From: Parcubacteria group bacterium GW2011_GWA2_42_14
GTDB taxonomy: Bacteria; Patescibacteriota; Minisyncoccia; Sungbacterales; GWA2-42-14
Assembly: GCA_000998135.1 (NCBI GenBank)
Contig: LCCV01000005.1
Coordinates: 157 to 64,156 of the forward strand
DNA length: 64,000 nucleotides
Reading direction: 5' to 3'
The notes under the pieces are model-generated. The model ran no database searches and had not been told where the DNA came from. It saw only the letters and a list, made by a program, of their open reading frames with translations. Below are positions 31,534 through 63,382 of the stretch, piece by piece (position 1 is the stretch's first letter; each line of letters begins with the position of its first letter). The translations under genes and the position numbers were made by a program.

Positions 31534-32037
31534 TCATTTCTTGGTTTTAACATAATATTCAAGAAAAATCTTTAACGTGCTTTTGAAACCGCCTGTATAT
31601 TTTTCGGGCTGTATTGCCATATCCCGATATACTTCTTTAGGGTCAGCCCAGAACACCCTTCTTACTTCGTCCTCTTTTAATTTCTCCGGCGCCGATTTAC
31701 AAATAAATATTTTAAACATATGCCGGTTGTCAAAAGTATCGCCCTTATCCCGTGCCCGCGACGAACCAATTTCTTGAAGCTTAATTCCAAAAATACCCAG
31801 CTCTTCTTCCAATTCCCTTTTCGCCGCCTCCGGATAACTTTCTCCGATATTAACGTGCCCCGCCGATGAATGGTCAAGATGCCCGTCTTTTGCCCTCTCG
31901 TTTACCAAGAGCTCGTTTTTATCATTAACAACATAAATAACGGCTACTCTATGAAGCAGGCCTTCTTGGTGCGCTTTCTCCCGGGTTATTTCACCAAGCA
32001 CATTGTCATTATCATCAACCCAAATAACATTATTCAT
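31534..32037 (-). CDS. NUDIX hydrolase
   Basis: Nudix box GHVNIGESYPEAAKRELEEELGI. Confidence 0.8.
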   Translation of the reverse strand: MNNVIWVDDNDNVLGEITREKAHQEGLLHRVAVIYVVNDKNELLVNERAKDGHLDHSSAGHVNIGESYPEAAKRELEEELGIFGIKLQEIGSSRARDKGDTFDNRHMFKIFICKSAPEKLKEDEVRRVFWADPKEVYRDMAIQPEKYTGGFKSTLKIFLEYYVKTKK

Positions 32038-32968: not shown

Positions 32969-34645
32969 TTAAAACTTATATATTCTAAAAACCTCAATCC
33001 CCTTTTTGTTGTAAAGAAATACTGAGGAATAGCCCCTGGATAAAAGCTCTTTTTCAAAAAGACCGCCGGTTTCGGTCAGACGTTCCGGTTTCTTCAGCGG
33101 AACATTTTGGGTCATGGCAATAAAATAAAAATAATTAAAACCGGCTTTGGTGAAATAATCCTGCCCATTTTGCGCTAAAAACGACTGGTAATCTTCGGTT
33201 TTAAGAACAGGCCAACCGTGATAAATTTGCAGACGGTCTAAATACCAAATCTGGGGCCCGTTCAGCATGTTGCCGTCATATATTATTAATGCCGGATACG
33301 GTTCCGCTCCTTTTTGTTTGCGCAGGGCAACCGTTTTTGCCTGAAGGGCTTCAATAAATTTATAGCGCGCGTCAAAAACAAAAGCCGGCATTTTTCCGGA
33401 TAATTCCCTGTCAAGATATTTGCCTAACTCCGCAAAACCCCAATTATAATTTTCATAACGGAGTTTTTGCGAATAAAACCACGGACTCGGCCCCTTCGAA
33501 GCATAAATAAGCTGGCTATTTACGGAATAAACAATTTCAAAAATTATAAATGCCGCAAAAAAATAAATTATCGTTGTTTTTAATTTTGGGAATTGCTGAT
33601 AAACGCTGTATATAAGGAAACCTATTCCCAAAGCCAAAAACGGGACAAGCATGGAAAGAAATCTCATTTGCGGTCCGATAAATCCCGCTATCAAAAATAC
33701 CAAAAACACCAATGAAACCAGCAGGAACCGGCTCTTGAATAATGCGGATAGTCCCAAAAATGACATTAAAAGAAATAACCAGGAATTACTTTGAATAAGA
33801 TTGGGCAAAAAGTTGCGGATGCGGTCGAGTATCGTTCCCGCTTCTTCTTTGCCCGGAGCGGTTTTCCAAACTTCAGGATGTTGCCCGAAGATATAAGAAA
33901 ATTGAAAATCAAAATGGCCGACCGCGCGGTAAAGTCCGAAATTATAAATCAGAACGGGACTGAAAATCAAAATGGCTAAAATAATATTCATCCAAAATTT
34001 CTTATTCCAAAAATACTCGCGGCGAAAAATAATAAAATAAATAAAAAGAACAGGAACGGTTATAAAAATTAAAGTGTATTTGGTTAAAAAACCCAAACCC
34101 ATGGATAATCCGACCAGCCAAAGAAAATTGTCATTTTTCAAAGACCTGACCAAGGCGTAAGAAAACAAAAGCAGGAAAAAAATCACGTATGGCTCCTGCA
34201 GGCCCACGCGGGAAATTAAAATATGGTTGGAGGAAACCGCCAGAATCAGGGCAGAAATGATTCCCACCAAAGGAGAAAAAAGTAGCGCGCCTAATTTATA
34301 AATAAGATAAACCGAAGCAATGCCGAATAAGGCCGCCGAAAACCGGAAAGCAAAAATATTTTCACCAAAAATTTTGATAAAAAAATGCTGGATTAAAAAA
34401 ACCAGCGGCGGATGGTCATGAAACGATAATTTTGTCCACCACGGAATATTTCCGTCAAACCACTGAAGGGGCGTTGTTTGAAATTCGGCAACATCATAAT
34501 CAAGCAATCCTACGGCACGAAAGGCGTATAAAACTTCGTCTCCGACAGGGTCCCCCGCCCCGATGCCCCACAAACGCAAAACCGCCGCCAAAAAAATAAT
34601 GGCGGCAAGAATATATATCGTATTCCGGTTACGTTTTATTTCCAT
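32969..34645 (-). CDS. GT39/GT83-like membrane glycosyltransferase (second paralogue)
   Basis: Polytopic, with an early GDPVGDEVLYAFRA DE-type loop. Confidence 0.55.
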   Translation of the reverse strand: MEIKRNRNTIYILAAIIFLAAVLRLWGIGAGDPVGDEVLYAFRAVGLLDYDVAEFQTTPLQWFDGNIPWWTKLSFHDHPPLVFLIQHFFIKIFGENIFAFRFSAALFGIASVYLIYKLGALLFSPLVGIISALILAVSSNHILISRVGLQEPYVIFFLLLFSYALVRSLKNDNFLWLVGLSMGLGFLTKYTLIFITVPVLFIYFIIFRREYFWNKKFWMNIILAILIFSPVLIYNFGLYRAVGHFDFQFSYIFGQHPEVWKTAPGKEEAGTILDRIRNFLPNLIQSNSWLFLLMSFLGLSALFKSRFLLVSLVFLVFLIAGFIGPQMRFLSMLVPFLALGIGFLIYSVYQQFPKLKTTIIYFFAAFIIFEIVYSVNSQLIYASKGPSPWFYSQKLRYENYNWGFAELGKYLDRELSGKMPAFVFDARYKFIEALQAKTVALRKQKGAEPYPALIIYDGNMLNGPQIWYLDRLQIYHGWPVLKTEDYQSFLAQNGQDYFTKAGFNYFYFIAMTQNVPLKKPERLTETGGLFEKELLSRGYSSVFLYNKKGIEVFRIYKF

Positions 34646-48023: not shown

Positions 48024-48046
48024 GAAAAAGCGGCATTTCTGCCGCC
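48024..48046 (-). terminator. Rho-independent terminator of nadC
   Basis: Minus-strand sense GCGGCAgaaaTGCCGC followed by TTTTT. Confidence 0.6.
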
Positions 48047-48094: not shown

Positions 48095-48946
48095 CTATCC
48101 GCGTTTACCCGCTTCTACAATTATCATATGCATCTTAATCGGACGCGCTCCGAGAATCAAAGAACTAAGCGATATATAATGAACTCCGGTTTCGGCGACT
48201 TCTTTTAAATCTTCGCCGCCGATGCCTGACGCCTCAAGCGTAACCAGGCAACCCGCCCTGTGAACCGCTTTCTTCATTTCATCAATTGACATATTATCCA
48301 GAAGAATATAACGAATCCTTCCGTCTCTTACAACTTCTTCCAATTGTTCCGAATTTTCCACTTCAACTTCAATCTCGACAAGATGAGATTTTTCTTCCGA
48401 GGCCTTATCAATCGCCTTTTTAATACCGCCGTAAATTTTGATATCCTCTTTTTTAATCAAAATTCCGGCATATCTTCCCGGGCGGTGATTATGAGCTCCG
48501 CCGACCTTAACGGCGTATTTTTCAAACGCCCTAAGTCCGGGCAAAGTTTTTCTCGTATCCAATAGTTTGCAATTTGTGCCACTAACTTCATTTACTTTCA
48601 TTCTGGTATTGGTCGCGATACCGCTTAAATGGCCAAGAAGATTCAAAACAATTCTGATGCCGTTTCGCAAAATTTCTTTCTCCACCCTGAATTCCGCCAA
48701 AACATCACCGGACGAGAATAATGTACCATCGTCCAAAAGCTGAACCATGTCTAAAAGATGAACGTCATACTGGGCCAAAAGGTCAAAAGCCGGCTTAATC
48801 AATCTTCCGCCGCAAAAAATTCCGACGTCTTGGACGACAATTCGGACGGTAACATATTCAGGATTCGGTCCGGGATTAACTTCCAGCGACCCCAAATCTT
48901 CCGACAAAAACTCTTCAAGCTTTCTTCGGATATAAATTTCGTTCAT
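48095..48946 (-). CDS. nadC: Nicotinate-nucleotide pyrophosphorylase (quinolinate PRTase)
   Basis: LLDTRKTLPGLRAFEKYAVKVGGAHNHR. Confidence 0.9.
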   Translation of the reverse strand: MNEIYIRRKLEEFLSEDLGSLEVNPGPNPEYVTVRIVVQDVGIFCGGRLIKPAFDLLAQYDVHLLDMVQLLDDGTLFSSGDVLAEFRVEKEILRNGIRIVLNLLGHLSGIATNTRMKVNEVSGTNCKLLDTRKTLPGLRAFEKYAVKVGGAHNHRPGRYAGILIKKEDIKIYGGIKKAIDKASEEKSHLVEIEVEVENSEQLEEVVRDGRIRYILLDNMSIDEMKKAVHRAGCLVTLEASGIGGEDLKEVAETGVHYISLSSLILGARPIKMHMIIVEAGKRG

Positions 48947-48963: not shown

Positions 48964-50070
48964 CTATACGATTGACAGCATGCGCTCAATCGGTTTTCTG
49001 GCACGTTCCGCAAGATCGCGGTCAACGGTAATTTCATACTTAAGGTCGCGAAGCGACTCATACACTCCGCGAAGCGTATTTTGTTTCATAAAAGCGCATA
49101 CTGCTTCGGGATTTGCCGGAATAAGCTTTTTTTCCGGAGCGGCTTTTGACATCGGATGGATATTACCGATTTCGGTTGCCACGATTACCGTTTGTTCAGG
49201 GGTTTCCCTGACAAACTTAATCATGCCCTGGGTTGAACGAAACTGCATCATCTCTTCCGGCACCATGCCGCTCGCAATCTGGCGCATGCACGCGGACGTG
49301 CATCCGCACTCGGGATGAATAACCGCGGCGGCCCCGGGATGAAGCCTACGCTGTTCCTCAACATGATGCGGCTTGATGCGGTCGTGCACATGGCAGGCCC
49401 CCATCATAAGAAACAAGCGGTCAAGCGGCTCGCCCATTTTCTCAAGAAGTTTTGCGGCATAAAACCCGAGATACACATCCGGCAGAAAAAGAATCGGACG
49501 GCCGGGTTCATGTTCAATCACGTATTTTATGACCTTCGCGGAATTTGCCGAAGCGCAGCAATAATCGCTTTCCGCTTTCACGTCAACATAGGTATTAACA
49601 TAACTTATCACAACCCCATCGCTGTGTTCACGCTTCCAGGCGCGGATTTTATTGACATCCGCATGCGCGGCAAGAGAACAAAGCGCTTCCAAACTCGGCG
49701 CAAGAACTTTCTGGTGCGGCCGCGCCATTATCGCCAAAATCTGATTCATGAAAAGCACTGCGGCTTCGCACAATACATCGGCATCCGAAGCCGTGCCCTG
49801 CTGGGCAAGATACAATGAATCGCCGATTGCATCGGCAACATCCTGCACGTCAGGCGGCATGTAATTATGAGCAAGAATCAGGGCATTTCGTTCTTTCTTA
49901 AGCCGCGCTATTTCGGCCCGCAAAAATTCACGCTCTTCCCGGGAAATATTTTCGGGAAACGCGCTCGCGGGAATCAACGGAACTTCAATAGGAGGGCTTA
50001 AATCAACCTCATCCATTAACGCGATTGCTTCACGCGCGGGAAAAATATCGCCGGCCATCACGTCTTTCAT
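48964..50070 (-). CDS. nadA: Quinolinate synthase A
   Basis: ILAHNYMPPDVQDVADAIGDSLYLA. Confidence 0.9.
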   Translation of the reverse strand: MKDVMAGDIFPAREAIALMDEVDLSPPIEVPLIPASAFPENISREEREFLRAEIARLKKERNALILAHNYMPPDVQDVADAIGDSLYLAQQGTASDADVLCEAAVLFMNQILAIMARPHQKVLAPSLEALCSLAAHADVNKIRAWKREHSDGVVISYVNTYVDVKAESDYCCASANSAKVIKYVIEHEPGRPILFLPDVYLGFYAAKLLEKMGEPLDRLFLMMGACHVHDRIKPHHVEEQRRLHPGAAAVIHPECGCTSACMRQIASGMVPEEMMQFRSTQGMIKFVRETPEQTVIVATEIGNIHPMSKAAPEKKLIPANPEAVCAFMKQNTLRGVYESLRDLKYEITVDRDLAERARKPIERMLSIV

Positions 50071-51440
50071 TATTTTTCCTCCTTTTTCCGGGTTCCGAGG
50101 TCTTTTTCAAACGTTTCGTAATCGAAATAATATTTTCCCCGGAAAAACTTTACTATTTGTTCCGCATCGCGCTTGCCGTTTCTAATGCATACCGAAGCTC
50201 CCGGAGAAGGGGTGGTGTTAAAAATACAATTTTCTCCCACAATCGTCTTATCACCCATCTCGAGTTCCCCCGTATCAAGATTGACAATCTGCGGACGGAT
50301 TCCGCCAACGCCCTTGCGGATTTTAAGGTCAGCGTAACGGATAGTCGGAATAATGACCCGCGCTTCCCGCAAAAAGAAGAATTTCCCGACAACCGGCAAA
50401 CTATAAACCATATTCCTGAATACATAGCCAAAGAGATTATTCTTACAGATAATTTTCGCAAGGCACCATGCCCCGCGCAAAGAAACAATCGGCAATCTTA
50501 TAAAATCAAAAAATGTCTCATAGTGATGGCGCTCCATCAGCGGAAGCGGTTTGGTGGTGGGGCCGAATCTTGTAACTCTTTGATTCAAAACATCCGGGTC
50601 GGCGTGAATTTCGGCAAACGGCCTTCCTTCAACCTGCACCCGGTAAACTTTCCCGTTAACCAATTCGGGTGCGGAAAAGAAATCTCCGGCAACCAACAAA
50701 AGGCCCAAATTCAATCCATATCCGAGTTCTTGCGCAAAAAGCAGACTGTAGGAACCGGCGGCAAAAACAATCGCCTCCGCAACGAATACTCCATCATTTG
50801 TTTCAAGAACATAAACGCCGCCTTCTCTTCGAACGGATTGCACTTTCACATTAAAGAAAACATCAAGATTTTTGTTAACCATTTTTGCGTCGTCAAGAAG
50901 AGACTCGGAAAGTTTCTTATAATCTACGGCATAACCTTCACTCGAAACCATGGCGCATACCGGCTCGTCCGGGTTGCGTCCTTTCATGACCATCGGCTCT
51001 AGAGTAGCAAGTTCTTCCGGGCCGATAAGACGAATGTCTTCATAATACGGGCTGAATTTTTCAAACCTGTTTTTAACTCTTTTGACTTCACCCGCTCCGA
51101 CAGCCAGCACCATCCGGTGTGTTTTTTTAAAAAGGCCTTTGTCCTTTCGCGCCTCCACATAACATCTTAAGGCAACAGCTCCGACTTTAACCTCAAGCGC
51201 GTGGGCAAGACCGTAATTTGTTTCAGTTCCGCCGTCATGTGATGTTTGAGCATTGTTGAGCGGATGAGAATTAACTTCGGCCGCGCCGGAATTCTTCTCG
51301 AGAAGAGCTATCTTTTTTCCGGTGGAGTGGTCCGCCGAAGATTTAACATAAGCGCTTAAAACATAAGCTAACGCCGTACCTGTTACCCCGCCACCCACGA
51401 TAATAACATCAAAAACTTTGGATTCTTCCGCTTTTTTCAT
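50070..51440 (-). CDS. FAD-dependent oxidoreductase, L-2-hydroxyglutarate oxidase (LhgO)-like, sitting in the NadB position
   Basis: FDVIIVGGGVTGTALA dinucleotide-binding fold. IALLEKNSGAAEVNS and C-terminal NTTPSPGAS resemble LhgO. Overlaps the nadA start by 1 nt. Confidence 0.6.
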   Translation of the reverse strand: MKKAEESKVFDVIIVGGGVTGTALAYVLSAYVKSSADHSTGKKIALLEKNSGAAEVNSHPLNNAQTSHDGGTETNYGLAHALEVKVGAVALRCYVEARKDKGLFKKTHRMVLAVGAGEVKRVKNRFEKFSPYYEDIRLIGPEELATLEPMVMKGRNPDEPVCAMVSSEGYAVDYKKLSESLLDDAKMVNKNLDVFFNVKVQSVRREGGVYVLETNDGVFVAEAIVFAAGSYSLLFAQELGYGLNLGLLLVAGDFFSAPELVNGKVYRVQVEGRPFAEIHADPDVLNQRVTRFGPTTKPLPLMERHHYETFFDFIRLPIVSLRGAWCLAKIICKNNLFGYVFRNMVYSLPVVGKFFFLREARVIIPTIRYADLKIRKGVGGIRPQIVNLDTGELEMGDKTIVGENCIFNTTPSPGASVCIRNGKRDAEQIVKFFRGKYYFDYETFEKDLGTRKKEEK

Positions 51441-51511
51441 TTTTCAAAGACCTCCTGCCGTACCCGATCACGCTATAAGCGCGATTTAGGGCCGACTTAG
51501 TGTATATCTTA

Positions 51512-51540
51512 CACTAATTATATTATACTCCCGCCCCATA
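51512..51540 (-). promoter_or_regulatory. Consensus sigma70 promoter of the oxidase-nadA-nadC operon
   Basis: Minus-strand sense TTGACA-(17 nt)-TATAAT, then the conserved ATAATTAGTGTAAGATATA, then GGAGGTCTTTGAAAAATG. Confidence 0.75.
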
Positions 51541-51716
51541 TCCGTGTCAAGTAGAAGTAGATAGATAAAAACAAAAAACCGCCCCTAGACCGACTCCGCT
51601 ATATGTGGAGTCTATGTCGGGCGGTTCAATTGTAAAAATTTATTCTCCTTCGCCGAATACCGACCGGCTTGCTGGTCGGAGCTTCATCTTAAATCGGCAA
51701 ATACGAAAGGCCATTT

Positions 51717-52784
51717 TCACTCGCCATCCGGCAAATCCCTGACCGCATCAACTAATTTATCCGCCAAAGATACAATATTTTCATAATCTTCAAGCTCCCG
51801 CTTCCACTCATCGGGAATTCCGCTTAAACCTACTCTGGTTCCGACCAAAGCTCCGGTCATAGCCGCGATGGTATCGGTATCGCCTCCGGCATTGGCTCCG
51901 GCAAGGACCGCCGAACGAAAATCATCCTGATATTTAATGGCATAAGCCAACGCAGTCGGAAAACTTTCATAAACTGCTCCGCCAGTCTTTAAAACATCCG
52001 CAATTAATTCATCTGTGGCTCCAAGCAATGGGGGAATTTTTGCAAGAATTTCTGAAATTTTTGGCGTGCCGTCCTTAACGTAAGGTATTTTAATAACCAA
52101 ATCTTCATAATATTTTGCCTGCTCATATATCCAGGAAAAATTATCTTCGTTTCTTAAATCCCAGCCAAATAAAAACAAACCGGCAATATGCGCTTGCAAC
52201 ATCGCTCCGACAACGGAACGCGAATCATTGTGCGTAAGCATGGAAACCATGATTACTAATTCTTCTTCATCGTATTCGCCAAAATCTTTATTAAAGAGCG
52301 CGCCAAGATCGGAAAATATCCCAAGTATGGCGCTTTTCATGGCGCAGCCGTTGCCAGGACGCGTTGGAAATCTTCCATCAAAAGGATTATTACCTTCCAT
52401 ACGCGCAGTTAATGATTCGCGCGTAGTTTTCCCAAATCCGCGTTTTTGATGTTCCTCGAGCGCTTGGATATAATTTACAAACATTGCCAAGCCAACTACG
52501 TATAAATTCCCAAAAGCATTGCTTTTTACCGACTCAATCAATCCGCCGACAGTAGCAATAGTTAATTTCGTATCATCGGTCCACTGGCCCTTGGCAAGTC
52601 CTCGTGAAAAACGCGATTGCGAATCGCAAAAACCGATAATTCTGCCAAAATTCTTCAGAATATCCTGGCGGGTCATTCCTTCGGAAGGCATGCCTAATGC
52701 ATCACCAACAGCAATGCCAACCAGGCATCCTCTTACCGAATCACGAATTCCGACAAGATTGTCTTTTTCCGCATTTTTTGCCAT
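51717..52784 (-). CDS. ADP-ribosylglycohydrolase (DraG/ARH family)
   Basis: GCLVGIAVGDALG ARH signature. Start is taken at the internal ATG (MAKNAEKD) because the ORF-track TTG start lies inside the -35 box. Confidence 0.7.
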   Translation of the reverse strand: MAKNAEKDNLVGIRDSVRGCLVGIAVGDALGMPSEGMTRQDILKNFGRIIGFCDSQSRFSRGLAKGQWTDDTKLTIATVGGLIESVKSNAFGNLYVVGLAMFVNYIQALEEHQKRGFGKTTRESLTARMEGNNPFDGRFPTRPGNGCAMKSAILGIFSDLGALFNKDFGEYDEEELVIMVSMLTHNDSRSVVGAMLQAHIAGLFLFGWDLRNEDNFSWIYEQAKYYEDLVIKIPYVKDGTPKISEILAKIPPLLGATDELIADVLKTGGAVYESFPTALAYAIKYQDDFRSAVLAGANAGGDTDTIAAMTGALVGTRVGLSGIPDEWKRELEDYENIVSLADKLVDAVRDLPDGE

Positions 52785-52823
52785 TTTCAAAGACCAGTTT
52801 GGTTTATATCTTACACTAATTAA

Positions 52824-52850
52824 ATTATACTCTTCAACATTTTTTGTCAA
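52824..52850 (-). promoter_or_regulatory. Consensus sigma70 promoter of the ARH gene, twin of the nad promoter
   Basis: Minus-strand sense TTGACA-(15 nt)-TATAAT, then TTAATTAGTGTAAGATATA. Confidence 0.7.
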
Positions 52851-52889
52851 CCCATTGCAATTTTGATAAAAGAATGATAAAATAGTAAT

Positions 52890-54428
52890 ATGCCTTACGC
52901 TATAAAGGAAACGAGGACTGCTGTGTCTAAAACCGAATCACTTCTCTATCAGACGTTCAGTCGCTTAAATATCGGAATGCCTGAACAAACTTCGATTCTC
53001 TTGTATCTTGACATCATTAAACGCAGAGACCCCGCAACATATTTTCACTCACTTCGCGTCGGAATTCTGGGTTCAAGTATGGCAAACCACCTCTCACTCA
53101 ATCCTAAGCCCCTTTTCTATGCAGGACTTCTCCATGATATCGGAAAAGCGCTAATAGACCCACATATATTAAGAAAAACAAAGGGATTTAATAAAAAAGA
53201 TTTTGAAGAAATTAAACCTCACCCGCTATATGGTTATTTTATGCTTCGCGACATCCACGATTTTTCTGCAGAAATTTTACTTCGTCATCACCGATTTGGC
53301 CATCACCCCTATCCTAAAAAATTACCAAAGTCTTCAGCGCCATATGGTAAAAAAACGAAAAAACTTATTGAAAAATATGCCCGTCTCCTGGCCCTGGCCG
53401 ACTTTTATGACGCTCTAACAACAAGAAAAAACGATAAATTCGGGAAACAGCATATTCGTCCAGGAGAAATAAAAAATATTCTTATTTTTTACAATAGGGA
53501 CGTGCAGGGAATCATTGAAGAATTATTCCGGAAAGGTATATTTACGGAAATACCCTCTTCCGTTTTTGCAAAAAAGGAAATTCTTCCTTATCTTTCTCTC
53601 AACGAAGAGATTAAAAATATTCTTTTGTCTGCAGAACATTCTTTGAATTTATCGGAAAGAATTGCTCGTAACGTTGCTTTAGCAGCCGCACTTGAACCAA
53701 TCCCCGATAAACCGGGTGCTACCACCCGCCTTCAAGACATAAAGGAATCAAAAACTTTAGAAATGTTTGTAAGCGGGGGTGTCAATATCGGCTTGGCATT
53801 CTCCCACCTTGCCGACTACATTCAAAAACACAGAACAGCCGAGAGTTCATATCAATTTTGCTATCAAGCAATGGCGCTTAGCAAAATACGAAGGGCCGGC
53901 GGAAAAATAAATCAAGGAATCATTGAATTTTTATTTCCCATCGCAATCGCACAATCAATGCATGATCCAGATTCCAGAAAAAACATTTTATGGATTCTTG
54001 AAAAAACGAAAGATGTACTTAAAGATACAACACCAGCAGACGTTGCCTGGCTAATCAAAATGAAAAGGTTGGGAAATCGGCTAAGCGCAGTTGAACATAA
54101 GTATCCGGTAAAAGTGCGCAATACTAGTAATGTCTTTAACTATTATTACCAGGAGCTTCGAGATGAGGAAAAGAAAAGAAATACTGCCGGCATAATACAC
54201 AATCGCCAATTTGTCCTCGTCTATCCTGACGTAAAACGAGGGCTCGATGCTTTTCTAAAAAGCAAAGAGCCGAAATTCGCAAAAAGGGTTATTGAGGCTT
54301 ACGAAGCCATAAGAAACAACCCGAACAACATGCGCATTGGGCCGGGACTTGCTTCAGACTTTATTGCCATTATTCTTTATCTTGTATTTTCTTACTCCGC
54401 ATCACCAATTGAGGAAATCATAAATTAA
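52890..54428 (+). CDS. HD-domain phosphohydrolase (HD-GYP-like) with C-terminal domain of unknown function
   Basis: HSLRVG ... GLLHDIGKA HD motif. HHRFGHHPYP resembles a degenerate GYP loop. Confidence 0.55.
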   Translation: MPYAIKETRTAVSKTESLLYQTFSRLNIGMPEQTSILLYLDIIKRRDPATYFHSLRVGILGSSMANHLSLNPKPLFYAGLLHDIGKALIDPHILRKTKGFNKKDFEEIKPHPLYGYFMLRDIHDFSAEILLRHHRFGHHPYPKKLPKSSAPYGKKTKKLIEKYARLLALADFYDALTTRKNDKFGKQHIRPGEIKNILIFYNRDVQGIIEELFRKGIFTEIPSSVFAKKEILPYLSLNEEIKNILLSAEHSLNLSERIARNVALAAALEPIPDKPGATTRLQDIKESKTLEMFVSGGVNIGLAFSHLADYIQKHRTAESSYQFCYQAMALSKIRRAGGKINQGIIEFLFPIAIAQSMHDPDSRKNILWILEKTKDVLKDTTPADVAWLIKMKRLGNRLSAVEHKYPVKVRNTSNVFNYYYQELRDEEKKRNTAGIIHNRQFVLVYPDVKRGLDAFLKSKEPKFAKRVIEAYEAIRNNPNNMRIGPGLASDFIAIILYLVFSYSASPIEEIIN

Positions 54429-54508: not shown

Positions 54509-55387
54509 TTGTATATGTCTAAAACACCTTTTAAAAAAATATCCTTTTATTACCGCGGCTCCAACCCGAGAGCGCCCGTCTGGGAAAAACGCATAAAATC
54601 ATGGATTAAAAAGCGCTATCCGGAAACTATTTTTCTTGAAACCGGCATTTTCCCCAAACAAAAAAAAGATGCTCCCAATCTACTTATCGTTCTTGGCGGA
54701 GACGGCACCATTCTTGAGGCCAGCCAAAAATATCAAAAATGGAATTCTCTTATTTTCGGCCTTAATTTAGGCCATGTCGGTTTTTTAGCTTCAGTCCGGG
54801 AACCGAAAAATTTTCTTTCCGGAATTTCCAAAATTTTCAAAAAAAAGTACCGCGCTCTTCCCCGCATGCTTATCAAAGCCGTTATTTACCGGAAAAATAA
54901 AAAAATATTTTCGGCTTATGCCTTAAATGACGTTGCCGTGCAAAACCTTCTAGGAATGGTTGACATAGAAGTTTTTGTTGATAACCATCCGGTGCAGTAT
55001 ATTCACGGCACGGGAGTATTAATTGCCACCGCTACCGGAACAACCGCTTACAATCTTTCAGCCCACGGCCCCATTGTCATGCCGGATATAAAGTGTCTTA
55101 TTATTACGGAGCTTTTGGACCATAATATCCCGACTCCAAGCTTAATTATAAAAAGAAACAGGAATATAATTTTAAAAATAAAGGATTTCAGAAAACAAAA
55201 TCGTTTCATTATTAAAAAAACCGGCGAAACGGCAGATGTCGTCCTAACCACGGATACGGAAAATATAATCTCCCTGCAAAAAGGAGATAAAATAATCATC
55301 AGGCGCTCGGAAAGACTGGTGCGATTCGCCGAACTTGAAAAAAACTACTTTTTCAAAAGCTTGCAGGAAAAATTCGCTTTCCGCTAG
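54509..55387 (+). CDS. nadK: NAD+ kinase
   Basis: LLIVLGGDGTILEAS, NDVAV and GTGVLIATATGTTAYNLSAHGPIV. Confidence 0.85.
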   Translation: MYMSKTPFKKISFYYRGSNPRAPVWEKRIKSWIKKRYPETIFLETGIFPKQKKDAPNLLIVLGGDGTILEASQKYQKWNSLIFGLNLGHVGFLASVREPKNFLSGISKIFKKKYRALPRMLIKAVIYRKNKKIFSAYALNDVAVQNLLGMVDIEVFVDNHPVQYIHGTGVLIATATGTTAYNLSAHGPIVMPDIKCLIITELLDHNIPTPSLIIKRNRNIILKIKDFRKQNRFIIKKTGETADVVLTTDTENIISLQKGDKIIIRRSERLVRFAELEKNYFFKSLQEKFAFR

Positions 55388-58307: not shown

Positions 58308-59312
58308 TTATTCTTCGCCTTTTTCTAATTCAACGGGCAACATACATTCTTCCGGTCTCTTGTCTTCGCGAGGCCGCATGAACACGGGATGGCGAAGCGA
58401 GCCCGACGCAAAACGCTCTTCAAATTTTACCTGAACAACAAGCGGATAATTTTTTCGAGTAAAATCTTCTCGCTCATCATCGGTAAATCCGATACCCACC
58501 TCGCCGCAATTAATTTCTTTTTCGGTTTTGGAATCAATCTGCAAAAGATAAAGCTTGCCCATACGGTTCTTATTCTTTCCGCTTCCTTTTTCCCATTTCC
58601 TCACAATAAAATCATCTTCCTTAAACGGCTTCCATTTCCAGCATCCTTCAGGACGAGGCGGCTGATTGGATTTTCCGTCAAGGCGGAAAGCCGACGGCTT
58701 TGTCTTGTCATACAAAACCAAACCTTCCCATTTCTTTTCCTTAACAAGATTTTTTGCTTTTTCAAATGAACATCCGAGAATTTCCACCGGCTGTATATAA
58801 TAAGTCCTGAAATCAAGCTTGGCAAATAAATTCTTAATCAAATCAAAACGTTTCTGGTGGGTTTCTAAAGATACAACTTTCCCGCCAAAAACCACAACCC
58901 CAAAAACCATAGCAACCGCAAATCCGATTTCTTCCTGAAGTTTAACTGCCGCCGAATTGCCCGATTTGGCAATTCTTGTAAATTTCTCAAATTCATCCTT
59001 ACCGCAGTTGTCAAAAAGCATCTCTACGCACAAAAGAAACGGAGAAGGAATTTCCATTAAAGAAATTTCCTGAACTATATGGGGGTATTTTGCCGTAACA
59101 TCTTTAATGCCGCGAGTATAAATTTTTATTGAAGAATTTCGCCCCGCAATAAGATGGCAATAGCCGTTGCGCTTCCTCGTGACAATAAGGTTTCCGGATG
59201 TTTCCAGATTTAAAACCTTGGATTCCTCAACACTATTTTTCGGCTTAGCCGGAACAAAATTCGGGTCAAGAGGGGCAAGCGAAAATGGCAAACCAGAAGC
59301 TTTTTCGGACAA
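58308..59312 (-). CDS. ATP-dependent DNA ligase / nucleotidyltransferase-superfamily-like protein
   Basis: Motif-I-like TRKRNGYC (K-x-N-G rather than K-x-D-G), EGLVLYD motif IV, CWKWKP motif V, and a C-terminal OB-like region. Confidence 0.45.
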   Translation of the reverse strand: MSEKASGLPFSLAPLDPNFVPAKPKNSVEESKVLNLETSGNLIVTRKRNGYCHLIAGRNSSIKIYTRGIKDVTAKYPHIVQEISLMEIPSPFLLCVEMLFDNCGKDEFEKFTRIAKSGNSAAVKLQEEIGFAVAMVFGVVVFGGKVVSLETHQKRFDLIKNLFAKLDFRTYYIQPVEILGCSFEKAKNLVKEKKWEGLVLYDKTKPSAFRLDGKSNQPPRPEGCWKWKPFKEDDFIVRKWEKGSGKNKNRMGKLYLLQIDSKTEKEINCGEVGIGFTDDEREDFTRKNYPLVVQVKFEERFASGSLRHPVFMRPREDKRPEECMLPVELEKGEE

Positions 59313-59461: not shown

Positions 59462-60634
59462 ATGCAAATCGTTTATACAGGAGAGCCGTTTCCGGAAAAA
59501 ACCGTAAAATCAATTTTTCTGGCCGGACCCACTCCAAGAACCCCTGATGTTAAATCATGGAGGCCGGAAGCCCTTGAAATACTTAAAAAACTTGATTATA
59601 ACGGACATGTGTTTGACCCCGAATACAAAGAAGGTCCGCGGGAAGTTAAAGAATACGAATATGAAGGACAAACTGATTGGGAAACAAAAGGGCTGAATCA
59701 GGCCGATATTATTGTTTTTTGGGTACCAAGAAATCTTGAAACCATGCCTGCTTTTACCACCAACGTTGAATGGGGCACTTGGGCTGACTCCGGAAAAGTT
59801 GTTTTCGGCGCGCCCCCCGAAGCTCCAAAAAATAAATACCTGAAACTCATGGCCGAAAAATATTCTGTTCCGCAGTTTGAGACCCTTGAGGAAACCCTTG
59901 CCTGTGCCGTTAATTATCTTGGCAAAGGAGCGGAAAGAACCGGCGGAGAATGCAAAGTTCCGCTTTATATTTGGGAAACAGAGTCATTTCAGGCGTGGTA
60001 TAAAAATCTTCTTAAAGCAGGCAATCAACTGAAAGACGCAGGGGTTTTATGGACTGACAGGCGCGGCCCCAAAAAAGATTCTATTTTTGCCTGGGGCATG
60101 GAAGCTAAAATTTATATTGCCTCTGAAAATCGGTACAAAACCAATGACATCGTTATAACTCGCCGCGATATTTCTTCGGCAGTTCTCTGGAAAAAAGACA
60201 GATTTAACCTGCTGAATTCAGGAATTGTTCTAGTAAAAGAATTCCGTTCTCCCGGAAGGACTTCTGACGGTTTTATTCACGAATTGCCTGGAGGTTCCGC
60301 GTTCAAAAATAACGTTGAACCGATAATTCTTGCCGCCGAAGAAATATTTGAAGAAACCGGGCTTCATTTTGAACCGAGCCGCTTAAAACCCCATGGCTCG
60401 CGGCAACTCACCGGAACTTTTTCAACGCATCACGCGCATTTGTTTTCCATAAATCTGACCGAACTGGAACTTGCATGGTATAAAAAACTGGTTGAACTCA
60501 AAGAACCCCTCGGCAACCAAAACGATTCCGAAAGAACTTATATAGAAGTAAAAACCTTGAAAGAAATTTTATCGGAAAAACTCGCTGACTGGTCAACTCT
60601 CGGCATGATTATGCAGGTTATTTCGGAAAATTAA
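59462..60634 (+). CDS. Fusion protein: nucleoside 2-deoxyribosyltransferase-like Rossmann domain plus C-terminal NUDIX domain
   Basis: N-terminal IFLAGPTPR ... VFWVP (NDT/LOG-like). C-terminal Nudix-box-like ELPGG ... EPIILAAEEIFEETGL. Confidence 0.55.
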   Translation: MQIVYTGEPFPEKTVKSIFLAGPTPRTPDVKSWRPEALEILKKLDYNGHVFDPEYKEGPREVKEYEYEGQTDWETKGLNQADIIVFWVPRNLETMPAFTTNVEWGTWADSGKVVFGAPPEAPKNKYLKLMAEKYSVPQFETLEETLACAVNYLGKGAERTGGECKVPLYIWETESFQAWYKNLLKAGNQLKDAGVLWTDRRGPKKDSIFAWGMEAKIYIASENRYKTNDIVITRRDISSAVLWKKDRFNLLNSGIVLVKEFRSPGRTSDGFIHELPGGSAFKNNVEPIILAAEEIFEETGLHFEPSRLKPHGSRQLTGTFSTHHAHLFSINLTELELAWYKKLVELKEPLGNQNDSERTYIEVKTLKEILSEKLADWSTLGMIMQVISEN

Positions 60635-63274: not shown

Positions 63275-63318
63275 TATCTTAACAATTGTTGGCCGATTGT
63301 TCAACAATTGTTAAGATA
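63275..63318. promoter_or_regulatory. 16-bp perfect inverted repeat TATCTTAACAATTGTT / AACAATTGTTAAGATA with a 12-nt spacer, upstream of pncB
   Basis: Read directly from the sequence. Confidence 0.7.
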
Positions 63319-63344
63319 AACTAAAATTGAATTTAATATCTAGC

Positions 63345-63382
63345 GAAGTCCGACTTCACTAAATTTAGTGAAGTCGGACTTC
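63345..63382. promoter_or_regulatory. 38-bp perfect palindrome GAAGTCCGACTTCACTAAA / TTTAGTGAAGTCGGACTTC
   Basis: Read directly from the sequence. No trailing T-tract on either strand. Confidence 0.7.

Follow-up and report, generated by a model that had tools for sequence, protein, structure and literature searches.

The sequence block shared by two minus-strand promoters in the 64-kb stretch of DNA analysed here (the window), from a groundwater Candidatus Sungbacteria genome, is, judging from comparative sequence analysis, very probably an operator for the Nudix-related repressor NrtR. This assignment would give the NAD gene cluster of an uncultivated bacterium of the CPR a regulator, three target promoters and, in ADP-ribose, a likely effector; transcriptional regulation is almost unstudied in these lineages. 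The regulon is of an ordinary kind in an unusual lineage and reveals no new mechanism.

Two promoters with a common block

The first of the two promoters, P_ARH, precedes a gene for an ADP-ribosylglycohydrolase (ARH), and the second, P_NAD, precedes an operon for de novo NAD synthesis. The earlier note described them as twin minus-strand TTGACA/TATAAT promoters, and both are indeed present, with -35 and -10 hexamers at 52845..52850 and 52824..52829 in P_ARH and at 51545..51550 and 51522..51527 in P_NAD. Their spacers are 15 and 17 nt long, respectively, that of P_ARH being suboptimal; it falls short of the usual 16-18 nt, so that P_NAD alone (12/12 match) appears in the sigma-70 scan. Downstream of TATAAT, P_ARH continues with TTAA, TTAGTGTAAGATATAAACCAA (52819-52799) and the ATG at 52784, and P_NAD with ATAA, TTAGTGTAAGATATACACTAA (51517-51497) and the ATG at 51440. 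The identity of the initial transcribed stretches that had been claimed is borne out and even reaches GAGTATAAT, located 5' of the common 18-mer TAATTAGTGTAAGATATA, such that 27 of the 28 bases of GAGTATAAT-N-TAATTAGTGTAAGATATA match. The likeness of the two leaders runs on into the first codons (AAAAA(T)GCGGAA). The 18-mer has two copies in the 64 kb and no additional ones when three mismatches are permitted (0.03 expected). The sequence of the two promoters is identical in four independent assemblies and thus is not an assembly artefact.

The ARH gene (51717..52784, minus strand) encodes 355 aa from the ATG at 52784 and was identified by Pfam PF03747 (E 1.7e-56) and by its orthologues. An intrinsic terminator, a branched G+C-rich stem with a U run behind it (51573..51627, minus strand; -27.8 kcal/mol, z -5.6), comes after it and divides the ARH and NAD transcription units. 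The minus-strand NAD operon consists of a gene for a DAO/Mqo-family FAD oxidoreductase (hereafter, flavoprotein; 50070..51440) in the position where nadB normally sits, nadA (quinolinate synthase, 48964..50070; PF02445, E 2.8e-90) and nadC (quinolinate phosphoribosyltransferase, 48095..48946), with a terminator-like hairpin after nadC at 48029-48046. A literature search found no DAO-family replacement of NadB.

The TTG at 52850, from which the open reading frame track starts ARH, is the TTG of the -35 hexamer of P_ARH and therefore spurious, as the earlier note had recognized. The ATG at 52784 proposed in its place agrees with the 355-aa length of an 83%-identical orthologue and of three of the four gene calls on identical contigs, and the ARH start codon is corrected accordingly. 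An in-frame TTG at 52790, two codons upstream of this ATG, may be an alternative start.

A palindrome at both promoters

The common 18-mer belongs to a 21-bp palindrome, TTAGTGTA-N5-TACACTAA, that is absent from the earlier note; it covers the left two thirds. At P_NAD, the putative NrtR-type operator O_NAD (51497..51517) is a perfect 8+8 palindrome, TTAGTGTA-AGATA-TACACTAA, and at P_ARH, O_ARH (52799..52819), TTAGTGTA-AGATA-TAAACCAA, carries two mismatches, both in the promoter-distal arm; the next best window matches have at least four, which is the chance level. In both promoters, the palindrome begins 4 nt past the -10 box and spans the predicted transcription start together with the first ~20 transcribed bases. 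The core GT-N7-AC is present, with G6T7 and A15C16 of the 21-mer 7 nt apart as read from the sequence.

Eighteen sites are located at ARH, flavoprotein/nadA, nadD, nrtR and nadK promoters of eight related genomes (the sites come from window/L128, L001, L004, L005, L006, L210, L211, L212 and L213). With a position weight matrix (PWM) built from 18 related sites, O_NAD scores 29.9 and O_ARH 21.3, all other positions of the window score below 9, and the maximum over 20 shuffles is 16. In L001, L004, L005, L006, L210 and L211, the ARH and flavoprotein/nadA promoters carry the site at an equivalent position, and additional sites are found in relatives at nrtR (L211), nadK (L006) and a nadD-ARH operon (L210). 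Both promoters retain the site in relatives with ARH proteins only 50-83% identical, and the N5 spacer and flanks vary. A metagenome scan with the ARH alignment recovered mostly paralogues (26-34% identical) and two orthologous loci; the site was found at none of the ARH-paralogue loci.

A search for the exact palindrome in 185,579 species genomes yielded at least 120 loci. Among the 120 listed, 21 have a gene for a protein with Nudix and NrtR_WHD domains within 2.5 kb, often directly adjacent and on either side of the palindrome, in many phyla; 18 have NAPRTase/NAMPT and eight have PncA nearby. The union of nrtR, NAPRTase and PncA covers 33 of the 120 listed loci, across unrelated phyla. Compared over the full length, the NrtR proteins encoded at those loci share 47-57% identity with the Sungbacteria NrtR.

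The NrtR regulator and a third site

The window itself contains no nrtR gene detectable by tblastn or by an HMM built from 22 NrtR proteins; the three hits of the same search (at 31534, 36858 and 41319) are plain Nudix hydrolases. A 390-aa fusion of deoxyribosyltransferase-like and Nudix-like domains (59462-60634) was considered as a regulator and dropped, as it has no winged helix. The gene is found in L128 (GCA_001820775.1, contig MHQY01000044.1), which is 99.98% identical to the tail of the window: nrtR occupies positions 964-1638 of L128, on the same contig, 7.5 kb past the window end and ~19 kb from P_ARH, within a nadD-nrtR-nadE cluster. The encoded protein of 224 aa combines a Nudix domain that has an intact Nudix box with the NrtR winged helix (Pfam NUDIX and WHD_NrtR). 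It matches NCBIfam NF050029, 'ADPR responsive transcriptional repressor' (E 1.4e-53, positions 16-230 of 245), with 182 bits against an equivalog cut-off of 400, which marks it as a divergent NrtR member whose effector could differ. Its best structural matches, both full length, are BtAraR 5bs6 (E 6e-42) and Shewanella NrtR 3gz5 (E 2.9e-37). L128 also carries a third perfect site, TTAGTGTATATAATACACTAA, at positions 168-188, where it overlaps the -10 box of the nadD promoter. The pncA-pncB-prs salvage genes of the same NAD cluster have no NrtR site, so the regulon is partial.

Alternative explanations of the shared sequence

The identity of the two promoters could be a historical trace, left by recent copying or gene conversion of one promoter-leader onto the other, with no operator function. 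Such an origin would fit the fact that the identity reaches past the arms and takes in GAG with TATAAT, linker and AGATA spacer as well as the leader box and the initial codons, and that promoters of the same genome resemble each other more than their orthologues do: the window ARH promoter is 75% identical to the window flavoprotein promoter and 56% to the L001 ARH promoter, and the within-genome pairs of L006 and L005 are 82% and 73% identical, respectively. Duplication, however, accounts for the matching flanks and not for the persistence of the arms, which are near-invariant where the ARH proteins are 45-63% identical and the neighbouring bases drift; furthermore, the site is also present at the non-paralogous nadD, nrtR and nadK promoters and beside nrtR in other phyla. 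As a complete explanation, a historical trace is thus very improbable. The most plausible source of the identity outside the arms (GAG and the -10 box, the linker of 4 nt, AGATA, the GGTCTTTGAAAA box and the first codons) is a common ancestor of the two promoter-leader modules, to which gene conversion between the two may have contributed.

We consider it very unlikely that the shared sequence acts as RNA, that is, as a 5'-terminal stem-loop (UUAGUGUA-AGAUA-UACACUAA) that in both leaders would stabilise the mRNA or bind a ligand or protein. The NAD leader does fold into such a stem-loop (-7.0 kcal/mol, z -2.6), and the ARH site of L001 shows a symmetric change, GTATA...TATAC, but the ARH leader of the window lacks the hairpin (-1.9 kcal/mol, z +0.5). 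The arms are kept in sequence rather than in pairing alone, with an RNAalifold covariation term of +0.33 and double-sided changes in two of the eight pairs. At the nadD promoter, the left arm would not be transcribed because the palindrome overlaps the -10 box, and with a start ~7 nt past the -10 box it would be only partly transcribed even at P_NAD. The occurrence of the palindrome on either side of nrtR genes in many phyla also argues against an RNA function. A search with Rfam 15, including the NAD+ riboswitches, returned nothing relevant in 51300-53000 at E up to 10 and no relevant leader RNA family at the gathering score in the whole window. The shared leader RNA element that the earlier note had proposed as an alternative to an operator was therefore abandoned, given the ARH leader that does not fold, the overlap of the nadD site with the -10 box and the lack of an Rfam match.

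Another NAD regulator (NiaR, NadR, NadQ or an unknown factor) binding the palindrome is highly improbable. NiaR and NadR were named as options in the earlier note along with NrtR, and NadQ contains an NrtR-type winged helix (PDB 7q91 matches NrtR residues 127-214). However, the TGT-N7-ACA of the palindrome matches neither core of NiaR (YrxA; HTH and 3H domains), TGT-N4-ACA (type I) or ACA-N5-TGT (type II) (PMC2330245), nor the 18-bp operator TGTTTA-N6-TAAACA of enterobacterial NadR, a protein with an N-terminal HTH (PMC2330246). Among the scanned window ORFs and the gene tables of contigs L127-L130, no HTH_11/3H or NadR-type HTH gene was seen. Of the three options, only NrtR is thus retained, with the GT-N7-AC core, a bona fide nrtR gene in the cluster and the exact motif beside nrtR elsewhere.

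Finally, we attach practically no probability to the 18-19-mer belonging to a generic repeat or being a standard sequence near promoters of the organism, the objection that the earlier note had raised against itself, given the two copies of the 18-mer in the window, the presence of only three operator sites in ~76 kb of genome, each at NAD genes, and the lack of enrichment of GGGAGTATAAT-like strings (25 observed vs 17.6 expected) or of GGGAG with a -10 box as a generic promoter feature.

A leader box downstream of the putative operator

The operator by itself leaves the GGGAG 5' of the -10 box and a second conserved element, the box GnnCnTTGAAA, unaccounted for. The claim that both leaders end in GGTCTTTGAAAA-ATG holds for the NAD operon, where this box (51441..51452, minus strand) is preceded by the Shine-Dalgarno sequence AGGAGG and directly followed by the ATG of the flavoprotein gene; for ARH, it requires modification, as in the conserved box GGTCTTTGAAA(A) (52784..52795, minus strand) abutting the start codon, the 12-mer ends with the first base of the ATG. 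GGTCTTTGAAAA occurs without mismatch at the two start codons and has one further copy, within a gene at 34135. In 10 aligned leaders, GnnCnTTGAAA is invariant and its flanks drift. In 10 related promoters, 6-15 nt separate it from the operator upstream; the distance is 45 nt in the window NAD leader because of an inserted hairpin of ~40 nt (51457..51496, minus strand) that the orthologous leaders of L001 and L004 lack and that is unique in the window. In two relatives, the gene call begins at the TTG of the box, and in others short overlapping uORFs begin there.

Two simple interpretations of the box were rejected: as part of the NrtR site, because it occurs in 5 of 240 palindrome flanks in other phyla, which is the chance level, and as a plain start codon, because the TTG is in frame in about half of the cases. 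We tentatively raise the rather doubtful possibility that, in the ARH and de novo NAD promoters of Sungbacteria, GnnCnTTGAAA is a second, undescribed cis-element, which could act as another operator or, around the conserved TTG, control translation, with the promoter-leader modules perhaps kept alike within each genome by gene conversion.

Predicted regulation of the NAD cluster

By analogy with published NrtR work, an NrtR dimer bound to the site would block RNA polymerase. The regulator would thereby repress three units, namely ARH, flavoprotein-nadA-nadC and nadD-nrtR-nadE, the last one through autoregulation. ADP-ribose, derived from NAD consumption and from ARH action on ADP-ribosylated substrates, would bind the Nudix domain and release NrtR, jointly relieving NAD synthesis and the recycling of ADP-ribose from repression. 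The connection that the earlier note had drawn between the processing of ADP-ribose and the synthesis of NAD is mechanistically sensible, since published work identifies ADP-ribose as the effector of NrtR, an anti-repressor (PMC2330246), and it has a precedent in the nrtR-draG (ARH) locus of Streptomyces (Rodionov et al., 2008; PMC2330246). Because O_ARH has a degenerate right arm and the spacer of its promoter is 15 nt long, repression is probably looser at P_ARH than at P_NAD, and the promoter itself weaker.

Comparison with known NrtR-family systems

The typical NrtR operator is a 21-bp palindrome with the core GT-N7-AC, placed either across promoter elements or downstream of them ahead of the start codon, and known regulons include the actinobacterial nrtR<>nadA-nadB-nadC arrangement (Rodionov et al., 2008; PMC2330246). 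The Sungbacteria system resembles these in the palindrome, its core and its overlap with the promoter or transcription start; in its predicted targets, namely de novo NAD genes, nadD/nadE and the gene for an ADP-ribosylglycohydrolase; and in a regulator with a Nudix domain and a winged helix that is probably autoregulated. It differs in that the host belongs to the CPR/Patescibacteria (Ca. Sungbacteria), which are absent from the published regulon sets; that nrtR is located ~19 kb from the two promoters, inside a larger NAD gene cluster; that the de novo operon opens with the DAO/Mqo-family flavoprotein instead of NadB; and that pncA-pncB-prs lack a site. Our literature searches found no paper linking NrtR with CPR and nothing relevant for NrtR together with TACACTAA.

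In Shewanella oneidensis (PDB 3gz5/3gz6) and Mycobacterium smegmatis (PMC6800001), ADP-ribose frees NrtR from a palindromic operator at NAD genes. These proteins have the same architecture as the Sungbacteria NrtR, whereas their operator sequences are different, the mycobacterial one being the 23-bp GTTTTCGA-N7-TCGAAAAC (PMC6800001). Another member of the NrtR family, NdnR, responds to NAD (PMC4666351).

The closest solved homologue of the Sungbacteria NrtR is AraR of Bacteroides thetaiotaomicron (BtAraR; PDB 5bs6/5dd4), a homodimer that places one winged helix on each arm and that binds, and has been crystallised with, the operators AAGTGTA-N5-GACACTT and AAGTGTT-N5-TACACCC (PMC4666351). The effector of BtAraR is L-arabinose, its targets are arabinose utilisation genes and its Nudix domain is non-catalytic (PMC4666351), whereas the Sungbacteria NrtR retains the canonical Nudix box GX5EX7REUXEEXGU, as read from the sequence. 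The verified BtAraR operators have the same core as the Sungbacteria site, AGTGT(A/T)-N5-(T/G)ACAC. The operator sequence of Chloroflexi, Proteobacteria, archaeal MAGs and Bacteroides AraR thus appears to be used in Sungbacteria as well.

Gene neighborhood

The minus strand of the window encodes an ADP-ribosylglycohydrolase-family protein (ARH, Pfam ADP_ribosyl_GH; 51717-52784) and an operon consisting of genes for a DAO/Mqo-family FAD oxidoreductase (50070-51440), NadA (48964-50070) and NadC (48095-48946). On the plus strand, the gene for a 512-aa HD-domain protein (52890-54428) diverges from ARH and precedes the NAD kinase gene (54509-55387), rightward of which Pfam searches identify a deoxyribosyltransferase-like and Nudix-like fusion, an ATP-dependent DNA ligase, Prs, NAPRTase and PncA. 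Given this Pfam gene content, the window is part of a large NAD-metabolism cluster.

Several genes in this cluster deserve comment. The flavoprotein is not an L-aspartate oxidase of the NadB family, and its best NCBIfam and PDB matches, all weak, are malate:quinone oxidoreductase, L-2-hydroxyglutarate oxidase, glycerophosphate oxidase and glycine oxidase; it may be a non-orthologous substitute for NadB. The flavoprotein-nadA-nadC order is retained in contigs L004 and L006 of relatives, and the L004 and L001 flavoproteins carry an N-terminal membrane extension. The HD-domain protein matches known domains only within residues 51-175, where it weakly resembles the HD domain found in NadD-HD fusions (NF005519); its gene has a possible leaderless promoter (TTGCAA-N17-TAAAAT) ending 6 nt upstream of the ATG, and has no counterpart in L001, the 83%-identical relative in which nadK and ARH are direct divergent neighbors. 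The 390-aa fusion of nucleoside 2-deoxyribosyltransferase-like and Nudix-like domains (59462-60634, plus strand), which has no NCBIfam match and an altered Nudix-like box (AAEEIFEETG, R to E), is retained in the NAD clusters of L006 and L211, and the DNA ligase gene (58308-59312, minus strand) is likewise embedded in the clusters of L210 and L211. Elsewhere in the window, a LOOT RNA (Rfam RF03000; 6688-6810, minus strand) that scores 65.7 bits, where the gathering threshold is 46.4, adjoins a restriction/defense-like island encoding DUF6339, a Vsr endonuclease, a DNA methyltransferase-like ORF and a Fic protein.

Two promoters with a shared downstream sequence

Reading of the minus strand of 51300-53000 confirmed the twin promoters described in the earlier note. 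The ARH promoter (P_ARH) consists of TTGACA (52850-52845), a 15-nt spacer and TATAAT (52829-52824), followed by a TTAA linker, the 21-bp site O_ARH (TTAGTGTAAGATATAAACCAA; 52819-52799) and the ATG at 52784. The promoter of the flavoprotein-nadA-nadC operon (P_NAD) has TTGACA (51550-51545), a 17-nt spacer, TATAAT (51527-51522), an ATAA linker, O_NAD (TTAGTGTAAGATATACACTAA; 51517-51497) and the ATG at 51440. In a sigma-70 scan, P_NAD is the sole 12/12 match in the surrounding 7.6 kb; both P_ARH hexamers are perfect but stand only 15 nt apart. The 18-mer TAATTAGTGTAAGATATA occurs in the 64 kb only at these two promoters, even with up to 3 mismatches allowed (0.03 expected), and GAGTATAAT plus the 18-mer are identical at 27 of 28 positions. 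The ARH stop codon and P_NAD are separated by a strong intrinsic terminator (-27.8 kcal/mol, z -5.6), which makes ARH and the NAD operon two distinct transcription units. The promoter-region sequence is the same in 4 independent assemblies.

A predicted NrtR operator

A feature absent from the earlier note is a 21-bp inverted repeat, TTAGTGTA-AGATA-TACACTAA, of which the 18-mer forms the left arm and spacer. At P_NAD the palindrome is perfect (8+8), and at P_ARH it has 2 mismatches, both in the distal arm; every other position in the window has at least 4 mismatches to it, as expected by chance. Within the site, G6T7 and A15C16 are exactly 7 nt apart. Of the regulators proposed in the earlier note for a shared operator (NrtR, NiaR or NadR), NrtR, the ADP-ribose-sensing Nudix repressor of NAD genes, fits, and the shared block is very probably its operator. 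The published NiaR cores (TGT-N4-ACA, ACA-N5-TGT) and NadR operator (TGTTTA-N6-TAAACA) do not match the site.

Searches of the window with 22 NrtR proteins (tblastn and HMM) detected no NrtR, the only matches being 3 small Nudix hydrolases. The exact sequence of the window NAPRTase also occurs in longer contigs of the same organism (Candidatus Sungbacteria, GCA_001820775.1), including L128 (MHQY01000044.1), which share 99.98-100% identity with the tail of the window. Past the right end of the window, these encode PncA, a 1656-1668-aa protein, NadE, a 224-aa protein with NUDIX and WHD_NrtR domains, and NadD. Along almost all of its length, the 224-aa NrtR-type protein, whose Nudix box is canonical, matches NF050029, "ADPR responsive transcriptional repressor" (E 1.4e-53, with a score under the equivalog cut-off). 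It also matches two solved NrtR-family structures, BtAraR (5bs6, E 6e-42) and the NrtR of Shewanella (3gz5, E 3e-37), and is 47-57% identical to NrtR proteins encoded beside this same palindrome in other phyla. The nadD promoter carries a third site, this one perfect (TTAGTGTATATAATACACTAA; L128 168-188), which overlaps its -10 box. In ~76 kb scanned with a PWM derived from 18 related sites, only O_ARH, O_NAD and the nadD site were recovered; the pncA and pncB promoters contain no NrtR site.

The suggestion that the shared block acts as an RNA hairpin or leader element did not hold up and is most improbable: the hairpin can fold in the NAD leader (-7 kcal/mol) and not in that of ARH (-1.9 kcal/mol, z +0.5), RNAalifold detects no supporting covariation among 10 leaders (term +0.33), part of the nadD site lies upstream of any plausible transcription start, and Rfam yields no relevant match in 51300-53000 at E up to 10.

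Two further features of this region were noted. The 1656-1668-aa protein, encoded between nadE and pncA (L128 3965-8935) within the NAD gene cluster, has no Pfam match. The 333-nt pncA-pncB spacer contains a second long hairpin (63283-63330) and a perfect 38-bp palindrome (GAAGTCCGACTTCACTAAATTTAGTGAAGTCGGACTTC; 63345-63382) that precede a consensus promoter, TTGACT-N17-TATAAT, which lacks an NrtR site.

Conservation of the site

ARH orthologs (45-83% identity) were located on contigs of relatives and their promoters read. The module of -35 box, 17 nt, -10 box, ~4 nt and palindrome is found upstream of ARH and the flavoprotein gene (or nadA) in L001, L004, L005, L006, L210 and L211, with additional sites upstream of nrtR (L211), nadK (L006) and a nadD-ARH operon (L210). 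The arms barely vary, unlike the N5 spacer and the flanks. In three promoters (L005 5027-5058 and 8852-8883; L210 8238-8269), the -10 hexamer is TACACT, the same as the operator right half-site, yielding three half-sites each (TACACTA-N3-TTAGTGTA-N5-TACACTAA).

A scan of 185,579 species (one genome each) for TTAGTGTA-N5-TACACTAA gave at least 120 loci; every ORF up to 2.5 kb from a site was clustered and Pfam was run on representatives. Among the 120 listed loci, the largest neighbor cluster comprises NUDIX + NrtR_WHD proteins 220-250 aa long (21 loci, mostly directly adjoining the site), followed by NAPRTase/NAMPT (18), with PncA at 8; at least one of these is nearby at 33. Hosts among the matches listed include a Gammaproteobacteria MAG, Myxococcota, Ktedonobacteraceae, Levybacteria and archaeal MAGs. 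In a separate Bacteroidota group of at least 19 loci (including L009, L014, L021, L024, L032, L033, L064, L081, L082, L092, L095, L109 and L122), the exact palindrome lies upstream of pfk, gapdh or enolase genes, and an NrtR-family gene adjoins the site in two of those listed (L095, L122), which suggests that glycolytic genes in this phylum have an NrtR-family regulator.

Features beyond the operator

The NrtR operator leaves a leader box unexplained. GGTCTTTGAAAA is found at the ARH and flavoprotein start codons (52784-52795 and 51441-51452), and the first codons of both genes are similar too. Its general form, G-N-N-C-N-TTGAAA, which follows the NrtR site, shows no variation across an alignment of 10 ARH and flavoprotein leaders from the window and the six relatives; a similar sequence, GTTCGTTGAAAT, is present in the pncB leader. 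The box is not found at the nadD or nrtR promoters, and near NrtR sites of other phyla it occurs at chance level (5 of 240 flanks). Gene calls for L210 and L211 use its TTG as the start codon; in some genes this TTG is in frame, and elsewhere it opens short uORFs overlapping the gene start. The window NAD leader also has a unique 40-nt hairpin insertion.

Promoters within a genome are more alike than orthologous ones: the window ARH and NAD promoters are 75% identical (L006 pair, 82%; L005 pair, 73%), compared to 56% for the ARH promoters of the window and L001. This pattern suggests duplication of the promoter followed by gene conversion, which would account for the identity outside the operator arms.

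Proposed regulation and comparison with known systems

From characterized NrtR proteins, we infer that an NrtR dimer on the site would occlude the transcription start, repressing ARH, the de novo operon and nadD-nrtR-nadE, and would be released by ADP-ribose. The degenerate arm and short spacer suggest that P_ARH is weaker and leakier than P_NAD. Co-regulation of ARH would be coherent because ARH is expected to free ADP-ribose from modified substrates; the known nrtR-draG (ADP-ribosylglycohydrolase) locus of Streptomyces is a precedent (PMC2330246).

A literature search found no paper linking NrtR with CPR bacteria; the regulon itself is of a well-known kind, in an understudied host lineage. 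Published NrtR sites are 21-bp palindromes with a GT-N7-AC core that overlap promoter elements or fall between promoter and start codon, and ADP-ribose suppresses NrtR DNA binding (PMC2330246). BtAraR, the closest solved homolog, recognizes AAGTGTA-N5-GACACTT and was crystallized on AAGTGTT-N5-TACACCC, with a core common to the Sungbacteria site (PMC4666351).
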